NCBI GenBank assembly: GCA_963748625.1
Contig: CAVVJT010000010.1
Span: 288,001-352,000, forward strand
Direction: 5' to 3'
DNA: 64,000 nucleotides
From: an uncultured Chloroflexia bacterium
Lineage (GTDB): Bacteria > Chloroflexota > Limnocylindria > Limnocylindrales > CSP1-4
In this document: positions 481 to 14,969 of the stretch, piece after piece
How positions within the stretch are numbered: position 1 is the stretch's first letter
How the letters are laid out: every line of letters begins with the position of its first letter
The notes under the pieces: model-generated
Databases searched by the model: none
Seen by the model: the letters and a program-made list of their open reading frames with translations, nothing else
Told to the model about the DNA's origin: nothing
Made by a program: the position numbers and the translations under genes

Positions 481-3400
481 TCACGGCAGGGTCCCCCCGC
501 CGAAGTCGTCGAAGCGGGCGTCGCCGGGCGGGTTGCCGGTGCCGGCGATCCGGACGCCGACCTGGCCGCCGCCGGATGCGCCGGCCCAGGTGCCGGCAGG
601 GACGCTCACGCTGCCGACCTGGATGCCGTTGCGGAACACCGTGATCGTGCCGTCGGCGAGCGCCCTGGCCCCGAGCTGGTCGCCCGCGTAGAACACGGCC
701 GGGAATGAGGCCCGGTCGACGAGGACGCCGCCCGATGCCTTGGTCCTGACCTGCACGGCGCCGGCACCGCGGTTGTAGACGACCTCGATCAGCGACGCGG
801 TGGTCGCGGTCGTCCCGGTCCCGGTCCGCTTGAGGATCAGGCCCTGCTTGGTCGCGGCCGCAGGCCCGACCTGGGTGAAGGTGAGGTACGCCTCCTGGTT
901 GGCCCCGAACGCCGTCGCATTGCGATAGACGTCGCCGCCGAGGCGGACCTGGACCGCGCTGCCGTCGATCCGGAAGTTGTTCTGGTTGGTGGAACCGGTC
1001 CACGGGTTGCCGAGGGCCCCGTTGGCCCGGTTGAAGGCGTCGAGGAGGCCGGCCTGCGGGAAGGCGAGCGGGGCCGGCACAGCGGCCGGGGCCGGGACTC
1101 CGGCCCGCTCGTCCGCACCGATGTCGATGGCCCCGCCGTTCGGGCGGCCGTCGTTGTCGATGTCCCACGCAGGGGCGATGACGCCGGACTTTGAGGCCGC
1201 GCCTGCGTCAACCGCCGGTGACGTGGCGGGGACGTGGTAGTCCCCGAGCGTCCCTGCGGGTGCGTCGACCGCGACCAGGAGGGCCCCGACGAAGTTGGGA
1301 TTGGTCCGCCACGGGGAGAACGAGACCGACAGGTCGAACTCGCTCGCCACGGACGGGTCGGCGTCGACGACGTTCGTCGGGCTGGCGATCACGCCCGCGT
1401 GGCCCTGGGACTGCAGGATCGAGTTGGTCGGGCTCAGGAGCCCGGCGCCATCGGAGACGCCGAGGTCCCAGGTGTCGATCGGCGTCGCGTCGCCGGGGAG
1501 GCCGATGCCGACGACCGTCCCACCGGAGCGGGTGCCGGCCCGGTTGTCCCAGAAGACGTTGTTGAACAGGAGCGGCTCGCTGAAGGTCGGCGAACCACCC
1601 GGCAGCGTCGCCTGGAGCAGGTCGCTGTTGGCGCCCGTGGAGAGGCCGGCGGGCGCCGCCTCACCCGTGCTCGTCGCGGCGGTGGCCGTGGTGATGTTGT
1701 TCATGACCGTGTTGTTGATGACCCGGACAGCCGGGGCGTCGTCGATGGCGATGCCGCCGCCTTCGTGGGTCGACACGTTGTTCACGATCATGTTGTTGAC
1801 GACGTTCATCGGGTAGTTGCCGGCCATCAGGAACCGGATCCCGCCGCCGTCATCGTTGGCGATGTTGGCCTGGACCAGGTTCTCGCGGATGTCCACGGGC
1901 CCGGTTCCCGGCGAGAGGATCAGCGGGTCGGCCGGGAGCTCGCCGGCGATCATGATCCCCGCGCCCTCGTCGTAGGAGCTGTTGAACCAGATCCGGTTGT
2001 GGTCGATTGAGCCGTTCGGGCTGTACCCGTAGACGGACACGCCGCCGCCGTACTCGGCCGAGGAGTTGCCGCAGATGTCGTTGCCGGAGACGGTGTAGCC
2101 ATCGCTGCCGGCGAAGAGCCCGATCCCGCCGGCGAGGTTCGTCCCGCCGTTGGTGACCACGCGGTTGTTGGCGATCCGGACGTGGTCGTTGTGCTGGCTC
2201 GTGTCGGGCTCGGGCAGGTTCGGCGTGCCGATCCGGATGCCGCCCGCGTAGGAGCCGCTGTTGCTCTCGATCACGTTGTTCGTGATCTGCAGGTAGCGGG
2301 CGTAGGCATTGACGAAGACGCCGCCACCCTGGGTGATCGCGTTGGCCGGAAGCCCGGTCGGGCCGCCGCCGATCTGGTTGATGTTCGTGGGGAAGTTGGA
2401 CTGGTCGCCGCCGCGGACGTCGAAGCCGTCGATGCCGGCCCGGAACGCGGAGCCGTACTGGCTCGTCGTCGCCGCGAAGACAGAGACGACAGGACCCTCG
2501 TAGACCGTCTGGTTGCCGACGCGGGTGAGCGCGTCGATGGCGGTCCGCCAGTTGTCGGCCAGGGCGGTGTCGCCACCGAAGGCCGAGCCGTCGATGACGG
2601 AGCCCTGGACGGACCCGTCCGCGCTGCCCGGGCCCACGCCCTGCAGCTTGACCGGCGAGTGGACGATCAAGTTCTCGTAGTACGCGCCGCGCGGGTTGAG
2701 CCGCGGGTTGGACGGCGTGGCGAGGCCCGGGTAGACCACGATGAGGTCGTCACCTGGGCTCGCAGCCGCGGCGTCGAGCGCATCCTGGACCGGATGCGGC
2801 GGGTTGCCCTCGTCGTACTGGACGGCCGGGAACTGGTTCGGACCGCTGAGGCCGGGGCCGACCTCGTACAGGTTCGGCTCGTATCGGCTGTTCCCGATCG
2901 TGCCGCCGCCGAAGTTGTCGAAGCGGGCATCGTTGGCCGCCGTGGTGCCGGCGAAGCGGACCGCGATCCGGCCGCCACCGGTCACGAAGGCGGTCGCACC
3001 AGTCGTCGGGATGGCGACCGGGGCGCCGATCTGGGCGCCGTTCTTGAACACGCGGACGGTGCCGTCCGCGAACGCCCGTGCGCCGAGCTGGTCACCCGCC
3101 GCGAAAGTCGCCGCGATCGCGGGCCCACGGTTCGTGATCGTGCTCGAGCCGGCGTTCTTCGTCTTGACCTGGACGGCGTTGCTGGTGCCGTTGAACACGA
3201 CGCTGATCCAGGAGGACGCGTTCGCGTTGGGGCTCGCCGAGCTGCCGGTGAACTTGAGGAGCACACCCTGCTCGGCGGCTGTGGCGGTCTTGGTGAAGGT
3301 GAAGTAGGCCTCCTGGTTGGGACCGAAGCCCGTGCCCGGCAGCCAGGTCGCGTTGCCCTGGCTCGACGTCGAGTTCGTCAGCGCCTGGGCCTGGTTCGTG

Positions 3401-6400
3401 AAGCCGACGAGACTGGTCGGTGTGACCCGGAACCGGCTCGTGGTGTTGCCGTCGGCGCCCCAGCTCGCGCCGAGACCCTGCGCGGTGCTCGCAGTGCTGC
3501 GGTTGAAGTCGTCAAGCACGGCGGTGGCCGGGAACACGTCCTGACCGAGCACGTGGAAGGTGATCCCGTTCACGGTGCGGGCGCCCGACGTGGAGGTGAT
3601 GGCGAGCTGGTGCGGCCCGACCGGGGTGGTGGCCGGGACTGTGACGTCGATGTGGCTGGCACTCCACGACGTCGTCGGCAGGGCGACCCCGTCAAGCGCC
3701 ACGGTGCCGGCGGCCGCGCCGAAGCCCTGGCCGTCGATGCTGAACGACTTGGTGCCGGCCGTCCGCATGTCGACGTACGGCCTGGAGACTGCGTACAGCT
3801 CGGGCGCGGTCGGTGCCGCCGGGTCGTTCACGCGGCAGACGAGCGGCCCGTTGAACTGGGCGCCCGGCAGCTGCGCGTTGACGCCCAGCTGGGTCGGGGC
3901 CGTGTCGGCGGGCACGATGAGGCCGGCGAAGACCTCGAACTCGGCCGCGATCGTCCGGTATTGCGGGTTGTAGTTCAGGTTCAGCCGGCCCGGGACGCCC
4001 GGGTCGTTGCCGACCATCCGATAGAGGTTGGCGCAGACGCCCGATGGCGTCGGGCAGTTGATCCGGTTCGTGGACGGCAGGAGGACGTCCGCGAGGCCGT
4101 TGTAGTCGGTCTCGACGGTCGTCACGAGCCGGTTGGCCCAGTCGTAGACGCCCACCGGGTTGAAGGCCATGCCGGCCTTCTCGCCGTAGAGGATCGACTT
4201 CGGGTCGGTGGAGAAGTTGAGGTCGTCGACGTTGTAGAAGAAGAATCGGCCCGGGAGCGGCACGTCGGTGAAGACGTTGAACATCGGCACGATCGACTTG
4301 CCGTTCTGCAGGTCGACGAGCTTCGTGTCGCACAGCGGGCGTGCCGTGCCCTCGTAGGGCGAGGCACCGATGTCGACGAAGGTCGGGTTGGCGGTGGTCT
4401 CCGAAGCAGGGGCGCTGATCGGCGCGCCTCCGTTGCCCGACGGATCGTCCAGGCTCACGGGGCCGTAGCCGTCGGTGCCGAAGTCGGCCACGTCGACCTG
4501 GTGGAGGGGGCCCGCGCAGGCGGGCGGCGGAACCTGCGGCACGAACGTGTCGCCGTTCCCGATGTTGATGTCCTCCTCGCGGGTGACCTTGTAGACCGGG
4601 TCGCCGTTCTCGTCGGTCTTGCTGGCGAGGTCGAGGTGGACGAGGTAGCCGTCCGCCGGGAGGGCATCGAACGCGACCTCGCCCACGGCGTACACGTCGC
4701 CGACCGCGAAGGTGTTGGCCGTGCCACCGGTCAGGGCAGCCACGAGCGTGATCCGCGTCTCGGAGTTGACCGTGGCGACCGTGCCCGTGGAGCCGTCGGT
4801 CGCGTTGACGACGGGATCCCCGGCAACCACGCCATCCGTGATGAACGTCGCGGTGGCGTCGTTCATGACGGTCGCCGACGGCGTGGCCGTCGCCGCATGG
4901 ACCACGTAGGCGTCGCCGGCCTTGAAGATGTTCGGGTCGAAGTCCGTGCCGCCGGCAAGCGGCGCGACGAGGGTGATCGTCTGGCCGGTGCGGCTCGCGA
5001 CGATGCCGCTCGAGCCGTCGGTGGTGTTGAGCACGATGTCGCCCGCGGCCACGCCGTTCGCGATGAACGTCGCGGTCGGGTCGGTCAGGACGGTGGCGGA
5101 GTCGGGGGCGATGACCTGGTAGGCGTCGCCGGCCGCGAACACGTTCGGGGTGACAGCGTCCGTATTGCCCGTGAGCGGCGCGACGAGGGTGATCGTCTGG
5201 CCGGTGCGGCTCGCGACGATGCCGCTCGAGCCGTCGGTGGTGTTGAGCACGATGTCGCCCGCGGCCACGCCGTTCGCGATGAACGTCGCGGTCGGGTCGG
5301 TCAGGACGGTGGCGGAGTCGGGGGCGATGACCTGGTAGGCGTCGCCGGCCGCGAACACGTTCGGGGTGACAGCGTCCGTATTGCCCGTGAGCGGCGCGAC
5401 GAGGGTGATCGTCTGGCCGGTGCGGCTCGCGACGATGCCGCTCGAGCCGTCGGTGGTGTTGAGCACGATGTCGCCCGCGGCCACGCCGTTCGCGATGAAC
5501 GTCGCGGTCGGGTCGGTCAGGACGGTGGCGGAGTCGGGGGCGATGACCTGGTAGGCGTCGCCGGCCGCGAACACGTTCGGGGTGACAGCGTCCGTATTGC
5601 CCGTGAGCGGCGCGACGAGGGTGATCGTCTGGCCGGTGCGGCTCGCGACGATGCCGCGTCGAGCCGTCGGTGGTGTTGAGCACGATGTCGCCCGCGGCCA
5701 CGCCGTTCGCGATGAACGTCGCGGTCGGGTCGGTCAGGACGGTGGCGGAGTCGGGGGCGATGACCTGGTAGGCGTCGCCGGCCGCGAACACGTTCGGGGT
5801 GACAGCGTCCGTATTGCCCGTGAGCGGCGCGACGAGGGTGATCGTCTGGCCGGTGCGGCTCGCGACGATGCCGCTCGAGCCGTCGGTGGTGTTGAGCACG
5901 ATGTCGCCCGCGGCCACGCCGTTCGCGATGAACGTCGCGGTCGGGTCGGTCAGGACGGTGGCCGAGTCGGGTCCCGACGCGGTGCCGCTCGCGCGGACGA
6001 TCGGGGCCAGCGTGCCGCTCGCGCGGACGATCGGGGCCAGCGTGCCGCTCGCGCGGACGATCGGGGCCAGCGTGCCGCTCGCGCGGACGATCGGGGCCAG
6101 CGTGCCGCTCGCGCGGACGATCGTGGAGATCGTGCCACCGGCGCGGAACGCGCCCGTGACGGAGCCGCCGGAGACCGCGCAGATCGGGGCGGACGGGTCG
6201 GTCGCGACGAGCTCGCCGTTGAAGCAGCCGTCGCCGAAGCCGTAGTTGCCGTCCACCGCGGCGCCGAAGTTCGCGTCAGGGGTTCCCTGGTCCGAGGCGT
6301 AGGTACCGAACTGGACGCCCATCAGGGGGCCTTCGAGGCAGCCCTTGTTGGCGCCCACCGGCAGGACCTGCTGGTCGGTCGGGTAGACGAGCGCGTTGCC

Positions 6401-8623
6401 GTCCACGTCTCGGGCGAGGCAGTCGTTCCCGGACGGACCGGAGGTCGGGCGCTCCCAGGTCTCGGAGACGTAGGTGTTGAGGAGCGGTCCCTGGGCATAT
6501 GAGCCGTCAGGAGCGAGCTCGTAGTCACCGCGCGCATCGCACGGGGTGCCGGCATGCGTACCGCAGGGCACCGTGCCATGGAGCTCCACGGTCAGGCCGG
6601 AGACGCCCGGCTGCCAGTCCTCGGCGGCCGCGTACTGCGGGTCGAGCTCGTTCCGGGTGACGTCGTAGCTGACCGAGCCGACAATGCCGCCGTTCTGCGG
6701 GTCGACGCCGTTCGTGCCGTTGGCGTCGTAGTTGTGGACGCCCCAGTCGATCCGGCCGGCGAGGCCGATGATCGGCAGGACGCTGACGTCCACGCCGGCG
6801 CCGAGGATCGTGGTGGGCGTCGGCTGGTTGTCGGCCTGGTACGTGACGCCGGTCGTGTAGAAGCTGTCGTTGTAGGCTTCGAGGATGACCCACTCCGTCA
6901 GCGGGTAGGCGTTCTCGAAGACGTAGTAGCCCTTCGAGTCGGTGCTCACCGCGGTGGAGCCGCGGTCCATCAGCGAGTTCTCGCGCTTGCGGAGCGTGAG
7001 GCCGAAGTTCGGCACGCCCGCCTCGCCGGCGTCCTTCTTCCCGTTGCGGTTCGTGTCGTTGAAGACGTAGCCGTCGATCTTGGTGAACCATCCGGTCAGC
7101 GGCAGGATGCCGAGGTCCTGGTTCTCGCCGGCGGCGACCGTCACCTGGACCAGGTCCAGGATGTAGTTCTGGTTCTCGTCCCAGTAGGTGAGCGTGTAGC
7201 TGCCCACCGGCACGCCGGTGATCGTGAACGCACCCGTCGTCGAGTCCGCCCGGACGAGCTTGACGGCCTGGTCCTGGTTGCCGAGATCCGAGAGCGAGAT
7301 CCAGGCATCCTTGATCGGCGCGTCGATCTTGGCGCCGCACAGGCCGCCCCAGATCGTGCCGGGGAGGCAGGTGCCCCCCTTGGCCGGGACATAGACCTTG
7401 GCAGCCGCGACAACGCCCGTGATCGTCCCCGTCTGGACGCCGGGGCCTGTGGCGAAGGAGTGTGCCGGGAGCTGCCAGTACGTGGGGTACGTGGCGGTTG
7501 CCTGGTACTTGCTGGTGAGGCCCGGGACGTAGCCGAAGATCGTGAACGGGAACGGCTCGCCGGCGACCACGAACTCCGTGTCGTAACCGGTCGCGCCCTC
7601 CATCAGCCAGGTGTCCCAGTCGTGGTTGCCCTCGAGGGTGGTCGTCTGGACCCAGCTCTCGCCCGACGGGGGGACCGCGGTCATCGCGTAGCGGTTCGGC
7701 CCGAGGTTCGGGATCTGCAGGAGGCCCCGGGCGATCGCCGGGTCCGCGGATGCCTGCCAGAGGTTGTAGTCGTCACCTCCGACAGCGCCCTCGACGACGC
7801 CATCCATGTCCGCGTCGCCGCTGAGGCATTTGCCGCCCTGGCGCAGGACGACGGGCCCGCCGTCAACCCACTCGTACCCGTTGGGGCCCGTGCCGGACTT
7901 GTACGTCGTGCACAGCGGATTGCCGAAGACGTCCGTGTTGACCTGGCCGAGGTAGTCGGCAAGCCTGCCGGTGAAGCCGGGGATGCCGTCCTCGCCCGGG
8001 TCGTACTGGCCGTTCGCCGACGTCACGTCGGCGAAGACCTCCGCGGTCGCCGTTGCCGTGGGCAGCGGCAGGGGCTGGAGCGGGACCTCGATCATGCCGG
8101 GGTCAGCCGGGACACTGAACGGCGTGCCGTCCAGCTTGTACCCGTCGGCGAGCACGGAGATGAGGTAGCGGCCGTTCGGCAGGGTGATCCCGGTGTTGCC
8201 GTCCAGGGTTGACTGGTCGCCCTGGGCCACCACCGGCGCGGAGCTCCGCAGCCCCGCGATCGACGTCCAGCCGCAGGAATTGGGATAGCCCGCATCCGCG
8301 GGCGAGCAGCCGGACCCCGGGTTGGGGTTGCGCTGCGACGTCGTCCCGGTGTTGTCCTCGTTGATCATCCACCGGTACGTGGTGACCGCATCGCCTGCGG
8401 TCACCGGGCCGATGTCGGCGTCCGGCTCGGTCCGGGCGGCGTAGACGTGCACCTTGACCGTCGACGTCGGGGCCGACGCGGGCGCCGCCTGCGGTGTCGC
8501 GGGACGCGGCGCGGCGAGGGCCGCGGGCGCGGTGACCTGCGTCGCGATGAGCGCAAGCGTTGCCAGGAGGCTCCCCAGCCTGCCGGCACTTCTGCGCGCG
8601 GTACCGTTCCTCGGACGTGCCAT
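481..8623 (-). CDS. Giant secreted multidomain protein (~2,713 aa after removing a 1-bp insertion at ~5658): SdrD-B/Cna-like, nested repeats, IPT/TIG, two lectin-like domains, right-handed beta-helix
   Basis: Joins ORFs 3692..9382 and 481..5574. AAGGAG RBS before ATG 8623; signal-like N-terminus. GYVFNDTNRNGKKDAGEAGV (SdrD-B-like); IDGQGFG...SWSASHIDVTVP (IPT/TIG); NN...N...GGGI repeats; DYHVPATSPAVDAG...DIDNDGRP...DIGADE. One repeat copy reads atgccgcgtcgag versus atgccgctcgag in the others. Confidence 0.85.
4684..5971 (-). repeat. 216-bp (72-aa) coding tandem repeat: 5 near-identical copies plus 1 diverged
   Basis: Unit PDSATVLTDPTATFIANGVAAGDIVLNTTDGSSGIVASRTGQTITLVAPLTGNTDAVTPNVFAAGDAYQVIA starts at 5971, 5755, 5538, 5322, 5106; diverged copy 4881-4684. 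Confidence 0.95.
5972..6151 (-). repeat. 30-bp (10-aa) coding tandem repeat: IVRASGTLAP x4, IVRASGTASG, plus diverged AFRAGGTIST
   Basis: cgtgccgctcgcgcggacgatcggggccag repeats directly across 5982-6123. Confidence 0.95.
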
Positions 8624-8691
8624 CGCCTGGTGCTCCTTGCTGCGGGTGGGACGCGGGATGCGGGCGGCGTTCGGGGGGCGGGTGCCGCCGC

Positions 8692-9292
8692 TCACGCGTC
8701 GGTCCCGTCGGTGGCGGCATCCGGGGCGGACGCCGTGGGGATTGGCGCGACGGCTCTCGCGCGCCGGGTGTCCCGCCACGGGACTCCCACGAGCAGGGCG
8801 ATCGGCGTGATCACGAGCAGCGCGGCCTGGAGCGCCGCCAGCCCGTCGCCGAGGAGGTCGGCCAGGAGGTCGACATCGGCCTCCTCCTCCGCCCCGAACA
8901 GGAACCCGTGAAGCTCGTTCCCGGGCATGCTGAGGAGCGCGAAGAGCGCCGCCGCCAGCCCGGCCCAGGCGAGTGCGGTCAGGGGCGAGATCGTGCGGGG
9001 CTCCTGGCTCCATGCGCGGCTGACAAGCAACGCGGCCAGCATCACGGCGATCGCGGCGGCCGGGCACGGCGAGACCCGTGTCGCGCAGCCAGTGGAGGAT
9101 GGGCGGCGGCTCGTTGCGCTCGTGGAGGCCGGCGTGGACGAGCTGGAGCGCGGCGATCGGGATCCCGGCCAGCAGCCACGAGTAGGCGACGACGCGACCC
9201 GGCAGAAGGCGGACGCCGGGTCCCGCCTCGACCCCTGGGCGACGTTCGACCCGCATGCGCGTAGGCCGGTGGGCAGCGACCGCTCGACTCAT
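8692..9292 (-). CDS. His-containing integral membrane protein (frameshift at ~9062)
   Basis: AAGGAG RBS before ATG 9292. N-part ...QLVHAGLHERNEPPPILHWLRD... joins ORF 8692..9045 (...GNELHGFLFG...). About 4 hydrophobic segments. Confidence 0.6.
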
Positions 9293-9523
9293 GCATCCGC
9301 TCCTTCCCGAACACTCCGGGCCCGCGTGCGACCTCGCACGCAGATCTGCGGCCATGCCCGGTCCGGGCCTGACCTGATGCACGGATGCTGCGTCTGAGCG
9401 TCGGCGGCGCCCATCGGGCCGGGTCCGTGTTGGGGCACGGTCGCAACCGGGTTTCGGATGGGGGGGGAACCCTGACGGGCATCAGGTGGACACCCGATCC
9501 CGGCCACGCTGGGCCGGGCGGAC

Positions 9524-10195
9524 CTACATGTCGGCGGGGATCAGGCCGACGCGGATCGCGTAGCGGACGAGCCCGGCGACATCGCGGATGTTCAGGCGGT
9601 CCATGAGCTGGGCCCGGTGGGTCTCCACGGTCTTGATGCTCAGGTTCAGCCGGCTGGCCATCTGCAGGTTGGTGTGGCCTTCGGCGATCAGCTGGAGGAT
9701 CTCCCGCTGGCGCGAGGTCAACCCGTCCGCGACATCATCGTCGGATGCCGAGCGGCGCACGTAGTCCGAGACGACGTGGCGGGAGACCATCGGGCTGAGG
9801 TAGGAGCCGCCCTGGGCCACCGCGCGAACCGCAAGCTCAAGCTCTGCGGGGCTGGAGTCCTTGAGCAGATACGCGGCTGCGCCGGCGCGCAGCGCCTGGC
9901 GCACGTACTCCTCGTTGCGGTGCATCGTGAGAACCACGATCCGAACGCCCGGGTGGTCGCGGCGGGCTTCGGCGATCGCCTGGATGCCGCCAAGGCCCGG
10001 CATCGTCAGGTCCATGACGGCCACGTCCGGCTGGTGGGTGGCGATGCACGCGAGGGCCTCAAGCCCGTCCTCAGCCTCTGCGATGACCGTCACACCGGGG
10101 AACCCGTCGAGCAGGCTGCGGAACCCGGCCCGGACCAGGGCATGGTCCTCGGCGAGGACGACACGGATGGCGGACGGCGGCCCGTTCACCGCCAT
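9524..10195 (-). CDS. NarL/FixJ-family response regulator (REC + LuxR HTH)
   Basis: IRVVLAEDH...PDVAVMDLTMPG...YLLK; LTSRQREILQLIAEG...SIKTVETHR. Overlaps the kinase stop. Confidence 0.95.
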   Translation of the reverse strand: MAVNGPPSAIRVVLAEDHALVRAGFRSLLDGFPGVTVIAEAEDGLEALACIATHQPDVAVMDLTMPGLGGIQAIAEARRDHPGVRIVVLTMHRNEEYVRQALRAGAAAYLLKDSSPAELELAVRAVAQGGSYLSPMVSRHVVSDYVRRSASDDDVADGLTSRQREILQLIAEGHTNLQMASRLNLSIKTVETHRAQLMDRLNIRDVAGLVRYAIRVGLIPADM

Positions 10196-11031
10196 ACGCC
10201 ACCGGCGCCTGCGGGGAGGTGCGCCAGCACGGTGGTGCCGCGGCCCTGGGCCGAGGTCACCGCGATCGTGCCGCCGACGAACGAGGCCCGTTCGTGCATG
10301 CCCCGGATGCCGAGGCAGCGATCGCCGCTGCAGACGGACGGGTCGAATCCCGCGCCGTCGTCGACGACCTCCAGGACGAGCATCCGCGGCCGTCTTCGCG
10401 CGACGACTCGCACCGTGATGTGCCGTGCGCCTGCGTGGCGGATCGCGTTGGTGAGAGCTTCCTGCACGATCCGGAAGCACGTGGTCTCCACGTCCGGCGG
10501 AAGCCGCCACCTGCCCACGTCGGTCCGGCAGGAGATCCTGACACCCGAACGTCGCGCACTCGAGCGACACAGGGTCCTGAGCGCCGCGGGGAGGCCGAGA
10601 TCGTCCAGCACGCCAGGCCGCAGGTCGAACGCAACCGTCCGGACCTGGTTCAGCGCCGCGTCGACCACGGCAATGCTGCTCCAGATGCGGGCAGCGCGCT
10701 CCACGTCGGGCGCGGCTGCGGCACCGAGGGCGAGGAGGCTCAGGCGGACAGCCGTCAGCGCCTGGCCGACCACATCGTGGAGCTCCCGCGCGATATGCGC
10801 GCGCTCCTGCTCCACCGCGGCAACCAGGCGGGCGCGCACCAGGTGCTCGACCTCCGCGGGCATGTGGTCAAGGACGACCGGCATGCGTGCCGTGGCGGTT
10901 CGTGCCGTGGCGGTGCGTGCATCGCGACCGATCCCCGAAAGGTCGGTGCAGATGGGCTGCAGCCATGCCTGCTGTTCGAGGCCATGCACCTCTGCGACCA
11001 CGAAGAATCCCTCCCCTGTTGCAGGGTTCAT
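10186..11031 (-). CDS. HisKA_3 sensor histidine kinase, apparently soluble (start uncertain)
   Basis: ERAHIARELHDVVGQ H-box, QEALTNAIRHA N-box, DDGAGF, LGIRGMHERA. No TM or recognisable sensor domain. Confidence 0.85.
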   Translation of the reverse strand: MNPATGEGFFVVAEVHGLEQQAWLQPICTDLSGIGRDARTATARTATARMPVVLDHMPAEVEHLVRARLVAAVEQERAHIARELHDVVGQALTAVRLSLLALGAAAAPDVERAARIWSSIAVVDAALNQVRTVAFDLRPGVLDDLGLPAALRTLCRSSARRSGVRISCRTDVGRWRLPPDVETTCFRIVQEALTNAIRHAGARHITVRVVARRRPRMLVLEVVDDGAGFDPSVCSGDRCLGIRGMHERASFVGGTIAVTSAQGRGTTVLAHLPAGAGGVWR

Positions 11032-11216: not shown

Positions 11217-12326
11217 ATGGCGTCGGGCCCAACGGGCAGTGACACTCTCGCCGCCCCGGGAGGTGGCTGGCTGATCACCAGACCATCGCGGATCCTGCTT
11301 GCACTCGATATGGCCGGGGTCGCGCTCATGGTCGCGGCCGTCGCCCAGCTCGCGGATCCCGACATCCTGCTCCACGTCGTCTGGATCGTGCTGGCGCTCG
11401 AGGCCTTCACCTTCGGCCTCCGCCCCGCCTCGATCCGGATCGCGGGCGCCACCATCTTCGTCCTCGCCTATGCGTTCTTCGCCAACGACGCGATGACGCC
11501 CGTCGGGCTGGCACTCGCCGACCTGGACCTCGAGGAGTGGCCCCTCATGGCCGTCATCGCACTGCTGGTGGCGATCATGGCCGACAAGGTGACGTCCACC
11601 GGCCGGCGCTATGCCGCCCTCTACCGCGAGGCGAGCGACCGCCTGCTCACGGCCCAGGAGGACGAGCGCCGGCGTCTGTCGGCGGACCTCCACGATGGCG
11701 TCGGCCAGACCATGACGGCCCTCTCCCTGGCCCTCGACGCGGCCGAGGCAGAGCTGGAGGCCGAAGGAGTCCCCGATGCGGCGGGCCGGCGGTCGGTGCG
11801 CAGGGCGCACGAGCTCGCCGGCATCGCGCTCGACGAGGCGCGTGGGGTCGCCTTCCGCTTGCGTCCCCCGCGCCTCCGGGAGGTGGGACTCGTGGCCGCC
11901 ATCGAGGAGCTCGCCGCCACGGCCGGCGTGCCCGTGGAGTTCTCCGCATCCCCGTCCCTGATGCGCCATGGCCTGCTCGCGGCCGACCGCGAGGTCGAAG
12001 CATTCCGGATCGTCCAGGAGGCACTCGGCAACGCGACCCGGCACGCCCATGCCGAGCGCATCCGGGTCGACGTGTCCCAGGTCGGGCAGACCCTGCGGGT
12101 CGAGGTCGCCGACGACGGGGACGGCTTCGAGCCGTCACGGGTCGGCGCCGGCGGCCTCGGGCTCGCGAGCATGGACGAGCGGGCCAAGGCGGTCCGGGGG
12201 ACGCTCCAGGTTCGGTCGCGCCTGGGCACAGGGACCATCGTCCGGCTGGACGTGCCGCTCGCCACCGGGCAGCCGGCCGGGGCAACCGGATCGCTCGGCG
12301 TGTCGCCTGGGGCAACGACGCCGTGA
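11217..12326 (+). CDS. Membrane-bound HisKA_3 sensor histidine kinase
   Basis: About 4 N-terminal TM segments; ERRRLSADLHDGVGQ, QEALGNATRHA, DDGDGF, GLGLASMDERA. Confidence 0.92.
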   Translation: MASGPTGSDTLAAPGGGWLITRPSRILLALDMAGVALMVAAVAQLADPDILLHVVWIVLALEAFTFGLRPASIRIAGATIFVLAYAFFANDAMTPVGLALADLDLEEWPLMAVIALLVAIMADKVTSTGRRYAALYREASDRLLTAQEDERRRLSADLHDGVGQTMTALSLALDAAEAELEAEGVPDAAGRRSVRRAHELAGIALDEARGVAFRLRPPRLREVGLVAAIEELAATAGVPVEFSASPSLMRHGLLAADREVEAFRIVQEALGNATRHAHAERIRVDVSQVGQTLRVEVADDGDGFEPSRVGAGGLGLASMDERAKAVRGTLQVRSRLGTGTIVRLDVPLATGQPAGATGSLGVSPGATTP

Positions 12327-13027
12327 ACGAGCGCCAGGGCACCCGCATCGCCGTCGCAGGTCCGGGCACGCGCCCCGAGGCCGTGGGTGAGTCCGTCATC
12401 CGCGTCGCGCTTGCCGACGACCACCATCTCGTGCGCGAGGGTCTGCGTCATGTCCTCGAGCGTGAGCCGGACATGCACGTGGTCGGCGAGGCGTGCGATC
12501 GTATCGGGGCCTTCGCGCTCGCCGAGCGGGAGCTGCCTGACGTCCTGGTGCTCGACATCACCTTCCCCGACGACGACGGGATCGCAATGCTGCGGGAGCT
12601 GGTCACGCGGTGGCCGCACATGCGGGTGGTCATGCTGACTATGCACCGCGACGCCGAGACGGTCCGCCAGGCGCTCCTCGCCGGAGCCGCCGGGTACGTG
12701 ATCAAGGGGGCGCATGCCAGCGAGCTCGCGGATGCGATCCGGGCCGTCAACCGGGGCGAGCGATACCTGCACAGCGCGGTCGCCGGCGCGATCATCGACG
12801 ACTCGCTGGCATGGATGACCGTCGCCAGTCCCCTCAGCGCCCGAGAGCGCGAGATCCTCGGGCACATCGCTGCGGGCGCCTCGGCGGTGGAGGTCGGGCG
12901 AGAGCTGGGGATCAGCCCGCACACGGTGCGCAGGCACGTGGCCAACCTGTCCGACAAGCTCGGACTGCGGGGTCCGAAGGCGCTGACCCGCTACGCCGTG
13001 GAGCACGGGCTCGTCCGCGATACCTGA
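12323..13027 (+). CDS. NarL/FixJ-family response regulator
   Basis: GTGA overlap with kinase stop; IRVALADDHHLVREG...PDVLVLD; LSAREREIL...ISPHTVRRH. Confidence 0.93.
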   Translation: MNERQGTRIAVAGPGTRPEAVGESVIRVALADDHHLVREGLRHVLEREPDMHVVGEACDRIGAFALAERELPDVLVLDITFPDDDGIAMLRELVTRWPHMRVVMLTMHRDAETVRQALLAGAAGYVIKGAHASELADAIRAVNRGERYLHSAVAGAIIDDSLAWMTVASPLSAREREILGHIAAGASAVEVGRELGISPHTVRRHVANLSDKLGLRGPKALTRYAVEHGLVRDT

Positions 13028-13490
13028 GGCCTGCGCCCGGATGCAGCCGTCCCGCGGCGCCCGGTGGTCACCGAATCGGCGGCGCGTGGTCGCGCGTGAT
13101 GGTTCCGGTCAGCCGCCGGCCCTGCCATAGTCAAGTGGCCCGAGACCATGCTTCGGGTCGCAGCGCCCCGGTCGGGCATCGATCGCCCGCCTGCTGCGTT
13201 CCACGCTCCGGGGCCCGGGTAACCACCCGCCCCACCTCGTGCCGCACGTCTATCTGGCGTCGGCCGTCGGCGGTGCTACCGCGGCGTCCGGGCCCGCTGG
13301 AGAGGCTTCGGCCTGCAGGAAGGGAGGGCGGATGGCCGCACACCGTTCGCTGGGTCTCAACCGGCGCGGGCAACTGCTCCGCGCAGCCGCGTCAGTTGGC
13401 GCGGTCGTGTCGCTCGCGGTGGCAGTCCTTGGCCTGTGCGTCGGCCGGCGACTGACTCGATGGGCCAGCGTGCAGAAGCAGCAGCGGGCC

Positions 13491-14969
13491 ATGGTGCCAC
13501 CCCTGGGCCACGAGGTGCGGGCCGACCCACTGCGGGTGATCACGCACACGGGTGACACGGCGGACGCGGGGCCGGCCACGGATCGTGCGCCCGCACCCAC
13601 ACCAACCACGCTGACGCGCCCGCATGTGCTGTCCTCCGGTACGGTCGCCCGGAACGCGCCGGGACGGACGATCCCCCGCCTGCTGTGGCTTGCGGCCTTC
13701 ACCGGTGCGATGGCCGTGCCGCTGCTGCTTGCCGCGCTTGATCCCGCCGGGCCGCCGCGGTCGTTCGTGCTCGAGCTGGGCTCGGCCCTGGGCATCGCCG
13801 CCCTCGGTCTCCTTGCCGTCCAGCTCGCCCTGCCGGCCCGCGTGCCGCTGCTGACCACGATCGGCGCCGAGGTCGCCGTACGGCTGCACCGCCACACCGC
13901 GGACATCCTGCTGGCGGTCGTCGTCGCGCACGTCGCGGCCGTCATGGTCGCCGATCCGGCGCGGGTCGAGCTCCTCCGCTTCTTCGGCCAGCCGTGGCGG
14001 GCGCAGGCGGCGCTCGGATCGGTTGCGGCGCTCGGCGTGATCTTCGTCACGTCACTTGCACGGCGCCGCATCCACCTGTCGTACGCCCGATGGCGGGGCA
14101 TCCACCTCGCGCTCGGAGCAGCGGCGCTCGTGCTGGGCATCGCCCACACCGTGGGCGTTGGGCGCTACCTTGTCCAACCGCCTGCCGTGTGGTCGCTCGT
14201 GGCACTGGCCGTTGTCGGGCTCGGGGCGCTGCTGATGACGCGCAGCCAGCGACTCCGCCACCGGACGCTGAGGCCGTACCGGGTGAGGTCTGTGCGCCCG
14301 GAGCAGGGTGGAGCGATCACCGTGGACCTCGAGGCCGACGGCCACGCGGGGCAGCCATTCCTGCCGGGCCAGTTCGCCTGGCTCAAGGAGCCGGGCTGGC
14401 GGCACCTGCTCGAGGAGCACCCGTTCTCCTACTCGTCGGGCGCGGGCAACCCGGCACATCCTGGCTTCACCCTGCAGCCGCGCTCCGGCTTCAGTGCGCG
14501 GGCGGCTCGTCTGCAGCCCGGCAGGAAATTGCTCGTGGACGGTCCGCATGGTGCATTCCGCCCGCAGCCTGACGCCCGGGGCACCGTTCTCGTGTCCGGC
14601 GGCATCGGCATCACGCCCTCGATGAGCATCCTGCGAACCGCCGCCCAGCGCAGGGACCCACGGCCGCACGTGCTGCTCTACGGCGGCCGGACCCTCGCCT
14701 CCCTGCCGTTCCTCGAGGAGCTCACGACCCTCGCGGGATCCATCGCTCTCACGACCACCATCTGCCTGTCCGCACCGGAGGAGGGCTGGACCGGCGAGCG
14801 GGGCCGCATCGATGCCGCGGTCCTCGACCGCCACCTGCCGCACGACCTGCGCGGCTGGCAGTTCATGACGTGCGGGGCGCCGTCGTTCGTCGACGCAATC
14901 CTCGACGCCTTCGAGGAGGTTGGGGTGCCCGGCGAGCGCGTCCACGCGGAGCGGTTCGTGGAGGTGTGA
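13491..14969 (+). CDS. Ferric-reductase-like TM domain plus FAD/NAD(P)H-binding flavocytochrome (start uncertain)
   Basis: TM helices with four His (RLHRH, AHV, GIHL, AHT); FLPGQF, EEHPFS, VDGPHG, SGGIGITP, MTCG, HAERF. Confidence 0.88.
   Translation: MVPPLGHEVRADPLRVITHTGDTADAGPATDRAPAPTPTTLTRPHVLSSGTVARNAPGRTIPRLLWLAAFTGAMAVPLLLAALDPAGPPRSFVLELGSALGIAALGLLAVQLALPARVPLLTTIGAEVAVRLHRHTADILLAVVVAHVAAVMVADPARVELLRFFGQPWRAQAALGSVAALGVIFVTSLARRRIHLSYARWRGIHLALGAAALVLGIAHTVGVGRYLVQPPAVWSLVALAVVGLGALLMTRSQRLRHRTLRPYRVRSVRPEQGGAITVDLEADGHAGQPFLPGQFAWLKEPGWRHLLEEHPFSYSSGAGNPAHPGFTLQPRSGFSARAARLQPGRKLLVDGPHGAFRPQPDARGTVLVSGGIGITPSMSILRTAAQRRDPRPHVLLYGGRTLASLPFLEELTTLAGSIALTTTICLSAPEEGWTGERGRIDAAVLDRHLPHDLRGWQFMTCGAPSFVDAILDAFEEVGVPGERVHAERFVEV

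Follow-up and report, generated by a model that had tools for sequence, protein, structure and literature searches.

The window, a 64,000-nucleotide stretch of a contig from an uncultured Chloroflexia bacterium, carries on its minus strand the gene of a giant secreted protein (481..8623), delimited by its open reading frames, start, ribosome-binding site and Pfam matches. The start codon, ATG at 8623, lies behind an AAGGAG, and the N-terminus that comes after it resembles a signal peptide. Two open reading frames (3692..9382 and 481..5574) derive from this one gene and are split by a single extra base in one of the repeats described below; when the break is bridged, a protein of about 2,713 aa (992 + 1721) is obtained, the remainder of which is open. 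Pfam matches in the N-terminal half included SdrD_B (PF17210, residues 515-582, 50.7 bits against a cutoff of 29.7), SpaA and fn3_3, and the C-terminal half gave a weak match to Beta_helix. A choice_anch_Q match scored 25.3 bits, and SdrD-B-like, IPT/TIG-type and beta-helix parts were also counted in the protein. A sortase-type tail or cell-wall anchor is absent from the translated C-terminus (…FDDFGGGTLP). The domain that hosts the insertion discussed here had no Pfam match; its motif pair G-x-Y-x-F … D-Y-L-V-H bears a likeness, by eye only, to SdrD B-like or Cna-B-type domains.

Within a hairpin loop of this host domain we found two tandem arrays, one of 30-nt (10-aa) units, termed A, and one of 216-nt (72-aa) units, termed B, both lying far beyond chance. 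Tandem Repeats Finder assigned the A array a period of 30 with 4.7 copies and 100% matches (score 284), and the B array a period of 216 with 4.7 copies and 99% matches (score 2012). All of the features are on the minus strand, so that the protein is read from high to low coordinates. The N-side of the loop (DGNYGFGDGC…DPSAPIC AVSGGSVTG, 6152..6253), recognized by the motif pair in homologs and by the unit alignment with P0336, leads into A1 (AFRAGGTIST, 6122..6151), the outermost and diverged unit, which is closely similar to AGGTITT, the strand preceding the barrel in single-copy homologs. Four DNA-identical units follow (A2-A5, IVRASGTLAP, 6002..6121), and then the innermost unit, A6 (IVRASGTASG, 5972..6001), which is contiguous with B1 and is the barrel's own first strand, or beta0. 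Each A unit has V/I, L/I and R at fixed positions. B1 (5756..5971) shows one synonymous difference from B2-B4. B2 (5539..5755) measures 217 nt, its frame being broken by the extra base near 5647 in a CTCGAG context, and B3 (5538-5323) and B4 (5322-5107), together 5107..5538, are identical 216-nt units. B5 (4891..5106; 89% identity to B1) equals B1-B4 over its first two thirds or so and diverges in the last third (…LAGGTDFDPNIFKAGDAYVVHA). The outermost unit, B6 (4675..4890), is diverged, with 60% identity to B1 and 58-68% identity to the barrel of single-copy homologs; it adjoins the host, and the chain re-enters the host domain on the C-side of the hairpin (AFDALPADGYLVHLDL…, 4624..4674).

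In the original prediction, made from the sequence before any search, six A units were followed by six B units. Both arrays, their order and the number of B units were upheld in the assembled sequence. The number of A units is six or seven against six B, depending on CAVSGGSVTG (6181-6152), a degenerate 10-residue unit which lies directly upstream of A1 in the same phase and may be a seventh A. It was also correctly predicted that the diverged units are outermost (A1 at the N-terminal and B6 at the C-terminal end), that only the innermost A joins a B directly (…SGTASG-PDSATVLTD), and that Ala-Pro is encoded over GCCCC at A/A and B/B junctions alike. An origin of A from an internal segment of B (IVASRTG…LVAP) was tried and rejected, the local DNA alignment score of 20 being reached by 6.5% of 2000 shuffles.

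Mis-assembly might have produced the copy numbers and the segregated order, and the frame break might reflect a decaying gene. The copy numbers and the extra base in B2 are given as assembled, the assembly is of metagenome type with 7.74% contamination, and frame breaks occur in or near the arrays of related assemblies too (P0337, P0338, P0188 and P0190). Nonetheless, we consider such an origin very improbable. The contig is long and belongs to a genome of 10 contigs, pointing to long reads that span the 1.5 kb, and six A units followed by barrels are likewise found in P0336, which comes from an independent assembly. Short contigs from four sequencing runs (X1-X4, 87-339 nt) end at the repeats, and those from three of the runs (X1, X2 and X4) match the array flanks with zero differences. 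Furthermore, outside B2 the 2,713-aa frame is intact, and the break, in a CTCGAG context that is common to every unit, looks like a consensus error. Bridging of the break by a four-letter codon was set aside, since all candidate words are also present in frame at other places.

The B unit is a 68-72-aa module belonging to an unnamed and widespread family of small beta-barrels. In a protein profile search at E<=1e-3, the profile of B1, B5 and B6 matched 926 representative proteins, of which 146 also passed E<=1e-10 and 18 passed E<=1e-30, and family members mostly carry 3-8 barrel copies. The B units found nothing above cutoffs in Pfam or NCBIfam; DUF5887 (PF19234) reached 20.7 bits with the C-terminal half and 15.6 with B5+B6, short of its gathering threshold of 32.7 bits. 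Among PDB sequences the B profile had no match better than E 0.85, Foldseek with the P0190 model returned no PDB structure at E<=0.001, and PHROGs gave for six small B-bearing proteins a single weak match, to a tail protein (E 0.0073). Scanning of genome contigs yielded a single distant locus (L008), a pilin-like protein whose units alternate in the canonical way, and scanning of metagenome contigs yielded 15 loci, with the host junction in 0 of them.

The canonical module begins with beta0 (G-T-A-T), a five-residue turn (x-G-S-x-G) and a strand L-x-L-x-D; among 85 canonical spacers, G was found at -9 in 46 and A at -7 in 49. A6 lies in the exact register of this beta0 motif and scored 8.0 bits on the first-strand matrix, and A1-A5 (SGTLA, GGTIS) scored below 4 bits. 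It had been proposed that an outgoing strand completes each returning barrel, a claim which the matrix sustains for A6 and not for A1-A5. In the array the canonical motif stands directly before L-x-L-x-D at A6+B1 only. In direct tandems, B2-B6 included, the last strand of the preceding barrel sits in the beta0 register, and it could substitute for beta0 in cis.

The DGNYGF … DYLVH pair is separated by 18-58 aa, free of any insert, in 146 of the 148 homologs having both motifs, and the other two, P0006 (the same as G320) and P0007, hold a single barrel in that loop. These two read C-x5-TITT-turn-TVLTD…, with beta0 and barrel contiguous, as had been predicted for single-copy homologs. Since the module is a loop insertion, the chain must run outward and then return. 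Measured from the loop Cys, the first barrel strand lies farther away the more barrels there are, at 14 aa in each of the two one-barrel homologs, 28 aa in P0190 (3 barrels), 52 aa in P0338 + P0003 (at least 5 barrels, read through frame breaks) and 73 aa in the window gene (6 barrels), a series of few and partly related genes. In the 28-aa linker of P0190 the matrix gives three hits at 6.6 bits or more, against a background of 0.28 per 100 aa. In three related genes (window, P0336 and P0337) the A array spans 72-73 aa from the Cys. In P0336 the six A units are diverged and the barrels come directly after; as these units differ among themselves, the A array is no fleeting product of slippage. 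Four related genes have 6, 6, 6 and 4 A units, and for the relatives the B counts are minimum values, as their contigs or frames are interrupted inside the arrays. The host gene itself was detected in 0 of 40 genomes of relatives, in 7 of 400 from the class, in 13 of 400 from the family and, at E<=1e-20, in 0 of 400 from the phylum; G320 was the only barrel-bearing match in the genome searches. Further multi-barrel relatives obtained by protein searches were found only N-terminally cut.

A second host family, unrelated to the first and with a jelly-roll-like split host, shows a similar relation: where 3 barrels are present its linkers measure 40, 44 and 46 aa, and where there are 5 the linker measures 58 aa. 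Compared with P0233, to which it is 60% identical, P0195 has exactly two 9-aa units more and two barrels more. Scans of viral contigs with this second host family found zero. Among 13 runs of abutting barrels with usable upstream sequence, the number of beta0 hits equalled that of barrels in 2, at a matrix threshold of 5 bits below which about half of the true canonical sites also fall. P0209 and P0253 have two abutting barrels behind a spacer of ordinary length.

Structure predictions were made with AlphaFold2 and alignments for P0190 and P0195. A pLDDT of 85-96 was obtained for barrels 2 and 3 in P0190 and for barrels 1, 2 and 4 in P0195, and the outer linkers (residues 12-27 of P0190 and 56-100 of P0195) were below 50 with no secondary structure. 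In both proteins most barrels devoid of their own beta0 reached these 85-96, which are confidence values and not contacts. The original prediction was to fail if B folded completely in the absence of A, and in these models, at least in silico, it did so. A complex prediction for the A array (69 aa) and B3-B6 (300 aa), from a 39-row alignment and with no controls, scored 0.31, 0.18 and 0.25 (median 0.25, mark 0.32) and speaks neither for nor against pairing.

These results bear on the question of whether the two arrays are coupled at all. If they are not, A would be a low-complexity linker repeat grown by slippage, B would have been expanded by independent unequal recombination, and the equal count would come from coincidence and the scoring of end units. 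Each array is a textbook tandem repeat whose inner copies are perfect, the linkers come out as disordered in AlphaFold2, and the outer A units fail the first-strand matrix. Moreover, the A and B counts, equal in the original prediction, are not strictly so: the window has 6 or 7 A against 6 B, and P0338 + P0003 has at least 5 B against 4 A units, or 5 if the upstream one is counted. However, barrel number and linker length rise together in four genes of the host family, and the step from P0233 to P0195, in the other family, is one of +2 units and +2 barrels. The length of the A array is constant in three related genes, one of which has diverged units; its fixed V/I, L/I and R positions are unlike typical disordered linkers; and the 4.7 perfect copies in each array also argue for coupling. 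We regard uncoupled arrays as unlikely, and a hairpin stalk whose limbs are coupled in length as likely.

Arrangements of a related kind appear at other loops of the barrel family. P0293 reads HMM columns 3-29, then a complete copy (3-70), then columns 30-70, that is, a complete copy inside a split copy. P0301 has three bodies, of which two are devoid of the last strand; two additional last-strand units come after the bodies, and the region is identical in P0346, P0347 and P0348, cluster members on three other contigs. As read from their sequences, P0293 and P0301 have arrays of split halves with equal counts at two further loops, which speaks in favor of coupling.

It was originally suggested that the arrays arose by serial self-insertion, with each new A+B entering whole at the beta0/beta1 loop of its predecessor, a route by which the mutation itself would keep the counts equal. 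Repeated insertion at the innermost junction would be expected to give A^6 B^6, A/A and B/B junctions both fall on GCCCC, and P0293 offers an example of a complete copy within a split one. On the other hand, no ordinary single event turns AB into AABB, tandem duplication giving ABAB instead, and two separate tandem duplications yield the same sequence and fit the data equally well, so that self-insertion is not needed. The innermost A6/B1 junction, furthermore, lacks GCCCC, a pentamer unremarkable at this G+C content, and the off-by-one counts in the relative, and perhaps in the window, are better accommodated by independent arrays. Serial self-insertion is in our judgment improbable.

The explanation that we favor, with slightly better than an even chance of being right as a whole, is that A and B are the limbs of a stalk inserted in a loop of a beta-rich host domain, which were duplicated separately and have been kept matched by folding and selection. 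It builds on four observations: the module is inserted in a loop, the single-copy form is contiguous, A6 lies in the beta0 register, and linkers are longer where barrels are more numerous. The ancestral insert would have been one module, beta0 plus barrel, a state in which two homologs still remain. An A unit would be a 30-nt duplicate of the segment bearing beta0, a B unit would be the barrel minus beta0, and each array would have grown by its own ordinary tandem duplication, through slippage or unequal crossing-over; separate duplication is suggested because each array holds four identical copies. The host hairpin would fix the two ends of the insert at a distance of a few angstroms from each other. 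One limb would be a rod of directly abutting barrels, probably a stiff one, with the A limb running back along it, so that the chain would go out along one limb and come back through the other. Each barrel would need about 10 residues, or about 33 angstroms when extended. With pinned ends and some 10 residues to each barrel, folding and selection could keep the arrays in step, and no special mutational mechanism would be called for.

Given such a stalk, chances are about even that every A unit takes the place of the first strand that one barrel is missing. A full strand-by-strand nesting, six deep, in which A and B units would be the two parts of one six-stranded barrel and A1 (or the unit upstream) would pair with B6 and so on inward to A6 with B1 to form a rigid hairpin stalk, is proposed tentatively, as we put its chances somewhat below even. 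Nesting would also mean that stalk length changes only when both arrays change, which we hold to be possible though a little doubtful. Likewise, a common N^k C^k grammar may operate at three loops, beta0/beta1 (window, P0190 and P0195), beta2/beta3 (P0293) and beta4/beta5 (P0301), a generalization to which we give not quite an even chance. The N part in the window amounts to only about 5 residues of strand. If nesting is real, it would represent multi-level self-insertion of a domain with a balanced-bracket fold grammar, a useful test case for structure predictors, and an undescribed general route to length-tunable projections on surface, pilus-like and phage-like proteins. Aside from nesting, the barrel is a widespread module with no family entry (926 representative clusters), and the matching of A and B is a simple rule which can be checked in long-read metagenomes.

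Literature searches on nested or self-inserted repeat domains returned nothing relevant, and in them neither this barrel family nor A^nB^n arrays came up. At the level of fold, barrel 1 of the P0195 model including beta0 (residues ~100-180) was aligned by VIA-align to the phage tailspike 24qj_A with a Z of 9.0 (rmsd 3.3 over 78 residues), to 8gtc_P and 9in6_M with a Z of 7.6, and to the phage P22 I-domain (2m5s) and F1 beta (4q4l) with a Z of 6.2 each, values in the range of 6-9 that the tool rates as common. The likeness is to small six-stranded beta-barrel insertion or accessory domains of phage tails and capsids, such as the I-domain of the P22 coat protein, and to the N-terminal barrel of F1/V1 ATPases. 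Several of these phage and ATPase barrels are themselves loop insertions, and none has sequence similarity to B. To our knowledge, none of them occurs as segregated arrays of half-domains.

Periscope proteins (e.g. Sgo_0707, SHIRT domains) are described as bacterial surface proteins with variable-length tandem-repeat stalks (PMC8201768). The window gene is like them in its near-identical DNA repeats (216 nt, 99%, 4.7 copies), its small tandem domains and its very large secreted product, and perhaps also in a copy number that differs among relatives, here 6, 6, 6 and 4 for A, the B counts of the relatives being lower bounds. The periscope stalk, however, is a single linear array running from anchor to tip, whereas the window has two unit sizes with apparently matched lengths inside a loop. 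A topological likeness may be found in the streptococcal antigen I/II adhesins (SspB, SpaP and AspA), in which alanine-rich A repeats and proline-rich P repeats associate as a stalk, the chain leaving via one array and coming back via the other; in the window such pairing would have to be supposed. The antigen I/II stalk joins an alpha-helix to a polyproline helix, while here one unit is a strand segment of 10 aa and the other a beta-barrel of 72 aa. In antigen I/II a head (V) domain lies between the arrays, whereas A6 joins B1 with no domain between them, and the arrays of the window, unlike those of antigen I/II, are inserted as a whole into a loop of another domain; the two systems are unrelated in sequence. 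In chaperone-usher pili, an incomplete beta-fold is completed by a non-contiguous strand through donor-strand complementation. There the strand comes from another subunit, whereas here it would come from the protein's own chain, in nested order. Tandem-repeat stalks are known as single linear arrays; in the window, arrays of 10-aa and 72-aa units lie side by side within a loop, seemingly held in step. If this coupling is real, it would be a natural co-variation of copy number imposed by protein topology, in which the expansion of one array would create selection for that of the other.

The two repeat arrays lie within a giant gene on the minus strand, which runs from an ATG at 8623 (with AAGGAG upstream and a signal-peptide-like N-terminus after it) to a stop at 481 and is open except for one extra base near 5647. 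This base, located in the second long repeat (B2), splits it between two ORFs, 3692..9382 and 481..5574; reading through it gives a product of ~2,713 aa (992 + 1721). In Pfam searches the N-terminal half of the protein matched SdrD_B (50.7 bits), SpaA and fn3_3 and the C-terminal half gave a weak beta-helix signal only, and NCBIfam placed a choice-of-anchor Q domain in the protein. Its homologs, which number in the hundreds, are ~2,000 aa long and annotated as SdrD B-like or IPT/TIG. The gene was found in none of 31 genomes of the same genus and in 13 of 400 of the family, and its closest relatives carry the labels of two different phyla, suggesting either horizontal spread or binning noise; contamination of the source genome is 7.74%. 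Neighboring genes code for LuxR-type response regulators (Response_reg + GerE) at 9524-10570 (minus) and 11537-13027 (plus), and a ferric-reductase-like membrane oxidoreductase is encoded at 13239-14969 (plus).

Tandem Repeats Finder reported two repeats, one of 30 nt at 5982-6123 (4.7 copies, 100% matches) and one of 216 nt at 4958-5971 (4.7 copies, 99% matches). Like the translation, these bear out the original prediction of six 10-aa units (A1-A6) followed by six long ones (B1-B6), and the direct A6-B1 junction and the GCCCC at A/A and B/B junctions that it described are also present. A1 reads AFRAGGTIST, A2-A5 read IVRASGTLAP with identical DNA in all four, and A6 reads IVRASGTASG. Apart from the extra base and a single synonymous change, B1-B4 are identical; B5 has a diverged last third, and B6 is 60% identical to B1. 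Immediately before A1, the 10-residue stretch CAVSGGSVTG forms a degenerate A-like unit in the same phase that is conserved in relatives, so that the A count is six or seven. At the frame break (5640-5655) B2 reads GCTCGA[C]GCGGC and the remaining B units read GCTCGAGCGGC, which includes the palindrome CTCGAG, a context found in all the B units. Four related assemblies (P0337, P0338, P0188 and P0190) likewise have frame breaks within or close to their arrays; the break in B2 looks more like a systematic consensus error than the sign of a dead or decaying gene. The A array measures 72-73 aa in the window and in the relatives P0336 and P0337, and in P0336 its six units differ from one another by conservative changes. 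The array is thus older than the perfect copies of the window, with its length conserved, and we consider it highly improbable that assembly artefact or gene decay lies behind the array pattern. Both arrays are intact in few genes, and several of the counts below were read through frame breaks. In other reading frames and on the plus strand (5950-6138, 5582-6502) the arrays also give rise to long spurious ORFs, such as PRSSARAARW repeats, that gene callers might pick up; out-of-frame text of this kind was found inside the database entries P0337 and P0338.

The B unit had no significant match in Pfam, NCBIfam or PDB sequences, and a profile of B1, B5 and B6 detected 926 representative proteins (E<=1e-3), mostly with 3-8 copies each. 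In this family the copies usually alternate with spacers of 12-18 residues, and the segment preceding the barrel is strongly conserved (n=85 spacers): G(-9) T(-8) A(-7) T(-6) x G S x G, then L/T-x-L-x-D. An AlphaFold2 model of the homolog P0195 (residues ~100-180), which includes this short first strand (beta0), resembles small six-stranded barrels (VIA Z 6-9), the matches being phage tail and capsid insertion domains, the P22 I-domain and the F1/V1 N-terminal barrel. A6 falls exactly in the beta0 register (S-G-T-A-S-G-P-D-S-A-T-V-L-T-D), scoring 8.0 bits on the 85-spacer matrix. B2-B6 lack a beta0 of their own; in them the register is taken by the strand with which the preceding barrel ends (AYQVIA). 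The ordinary alternating arrangement was seen at a locus of a gammaproteobacterial metagenome genome (L008, 4741-8103, plus), where a 1,120-aa protein with a pilin-like hydrophobic N-terminus has several B-type barrels, most with their own G-T-A-T strand ahead; masked residues interrupt its frame.

The motifs DGNYGF and DYLVH flank the arrays, and in 146 of the 148 homologs carrying both they are 18-58 residues apart, indicating that the module is an insertion in a hairpin loop of the host domain, where it enters after the second Cys. In the other two, P0006 (genome G320) and P0007, the motifs are separated by 119 residues, or one B-type domain, with a short strand and turn directly before the barrel (C-AVAGG-TITT-EDSGG-TVLTD). 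Contiguous A+B in single-copy homologs had been anticipated by the original prediction, which has every copy inserted into the one before it. Such serial self-insertion is unnecessary for the data and is left without a simple mechanism, and we regard it as very unlikely. Since the host hairpin holds both ends of the insert close to each other, a row of barrels that abut directly requires a way back, which on our reading the A array supplies; at roughly 33 angstroms extended, the ~ten residues of each A unit would, on the geometry that we infer, span one small barrel. Both arrays are ordinary tandem repeats, each free to change alone, and equal or near-equal counts would then be maintained by folding and selection. 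In two host-protein homologs, P0021 and P0026, this part of the host carries a different small domain of ~80 aa (TLEDT..AWTTD.WAGD.V.I..GTGAGQ) in another of its loops, some 60 residues further downstream than the A/B site; the host domain looks like a preferred site for barrel-like insertions.

Linker length was compared with barrel number. In the host family of the window, the stretch between the loop Cys and the strand that opens the first barrel is 14 aa in each of the two single-barrel proteins, 28 aa in P0190 with its three diverged barrels, 52 aa in P0338 + P0003 with five or more, and 73 aa in the window with six. P0338 and P0003 lie on contigs of equal length (33,910), and the value for the pair is inferred through frame breaks. 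The 28 residues of the P0190 linker hold three beta0-matrix matches of >=6.6 bits, compared with a background rate of 0.28 per 100 residues. In a second, unrelated host family (P0233, P0309, P0319 and P0195; 336-489 aa) the N- and C-terminal parts come together in the model as a single jelly-roll-like domain, with a linker and then directly abutting barrels inserted between them. Here three barrels go with linkers of 40, 44 and 46 aa and five barrels with one of 58 aa, and in an alignment of P0195 with P0233 (60% identity) the former has exactly two additional 9-aa linker units and two additional barrels. That the equal counts are pure coincidence is unlikely, and we lean slightly towards the arrays being two length-coupled limbs of the insert.

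Coupling also draws support from split-half arrays of the same barrel family at other loops. P0293 (residues 317-457) presents profile columns 3-29, a complete copy (3-70) and then columns 30-70. In P0301 (residues ~1760-2005) bodies 1 and 2 break off near column 57, short of the last strand, and body 3 is complete, with two more last-strand units of 13 residues behind it; this 245-aa region is identical in P0346, P0347 and P0348, further cluster members on three other contigs. The part counts are equal, 2 and 2 in P0293 and 3 and 3 in P0301, and neither kind of half can be complete without the other. Both proteins are unrelated to the host protein of the window, and as far as sequence tells, the barrel family is nesting itself at these loops.

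For the window insert, several results argue against strand-by-strand nesting. In AlphaFold2 models built with alignments the outer linker units had pLDDT <50 and no secondary structure (P0190 residues 12-27, P0195 56-100), and most barrels, including those without their own beta0, reached pLDDT 85-96. That B folds fully without A had been named as grounds for rejecting nesting; the P0190 and P0195 models point that way as weak evidence, the host domain in the P0190 sequence missing its N-terminal half. A1-A5 score below 4 bits on the beta0 matrix, and among 13 runs of abutting barrels whose upstream sequence was usable, only 2 had motif matches equal in number to the barrels, at a 5-bit threshold that also misses about half of the canonical beta0 sites. 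In P0209 and P0253 two abutting barrels stand behind a spacer of ordinary length, with two motif-like segments ahead of the preceding barrel. The counts are inexact: six against six in the window, 7 against 6 with the upstream unit, and in P0338 + P0003 4 or 5 A units for five barrels or more. Motif counts made by eye are generous and those by matrix strict. If the arrays are two limbs, the chances that each A unit docks as the missing first strand of a barrel appear evenly balanced. True strand-by-strand nesting overlaps with the mutational mechanism of self-insertion; with this taken into account it is possible, and we rate it as somewhat less probable than its absence.

A literature search found nothing relevant on nested or self-inserted repeat domains, and there is a substantial chance that the A/B insert is more unusual than a variation on known stalks. 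Like the window, Periscope proteins, as described in the available part of PMC8201768, have near-identical DNA repeats and variable length, but theirs are single linear arrays. The closest functional analogue, going by the available part of PMC3178794, is the antigen I/II stalk, in which two repeat regions of one chain associate and project a head domain, although there the partners are helices and the head lies between them.
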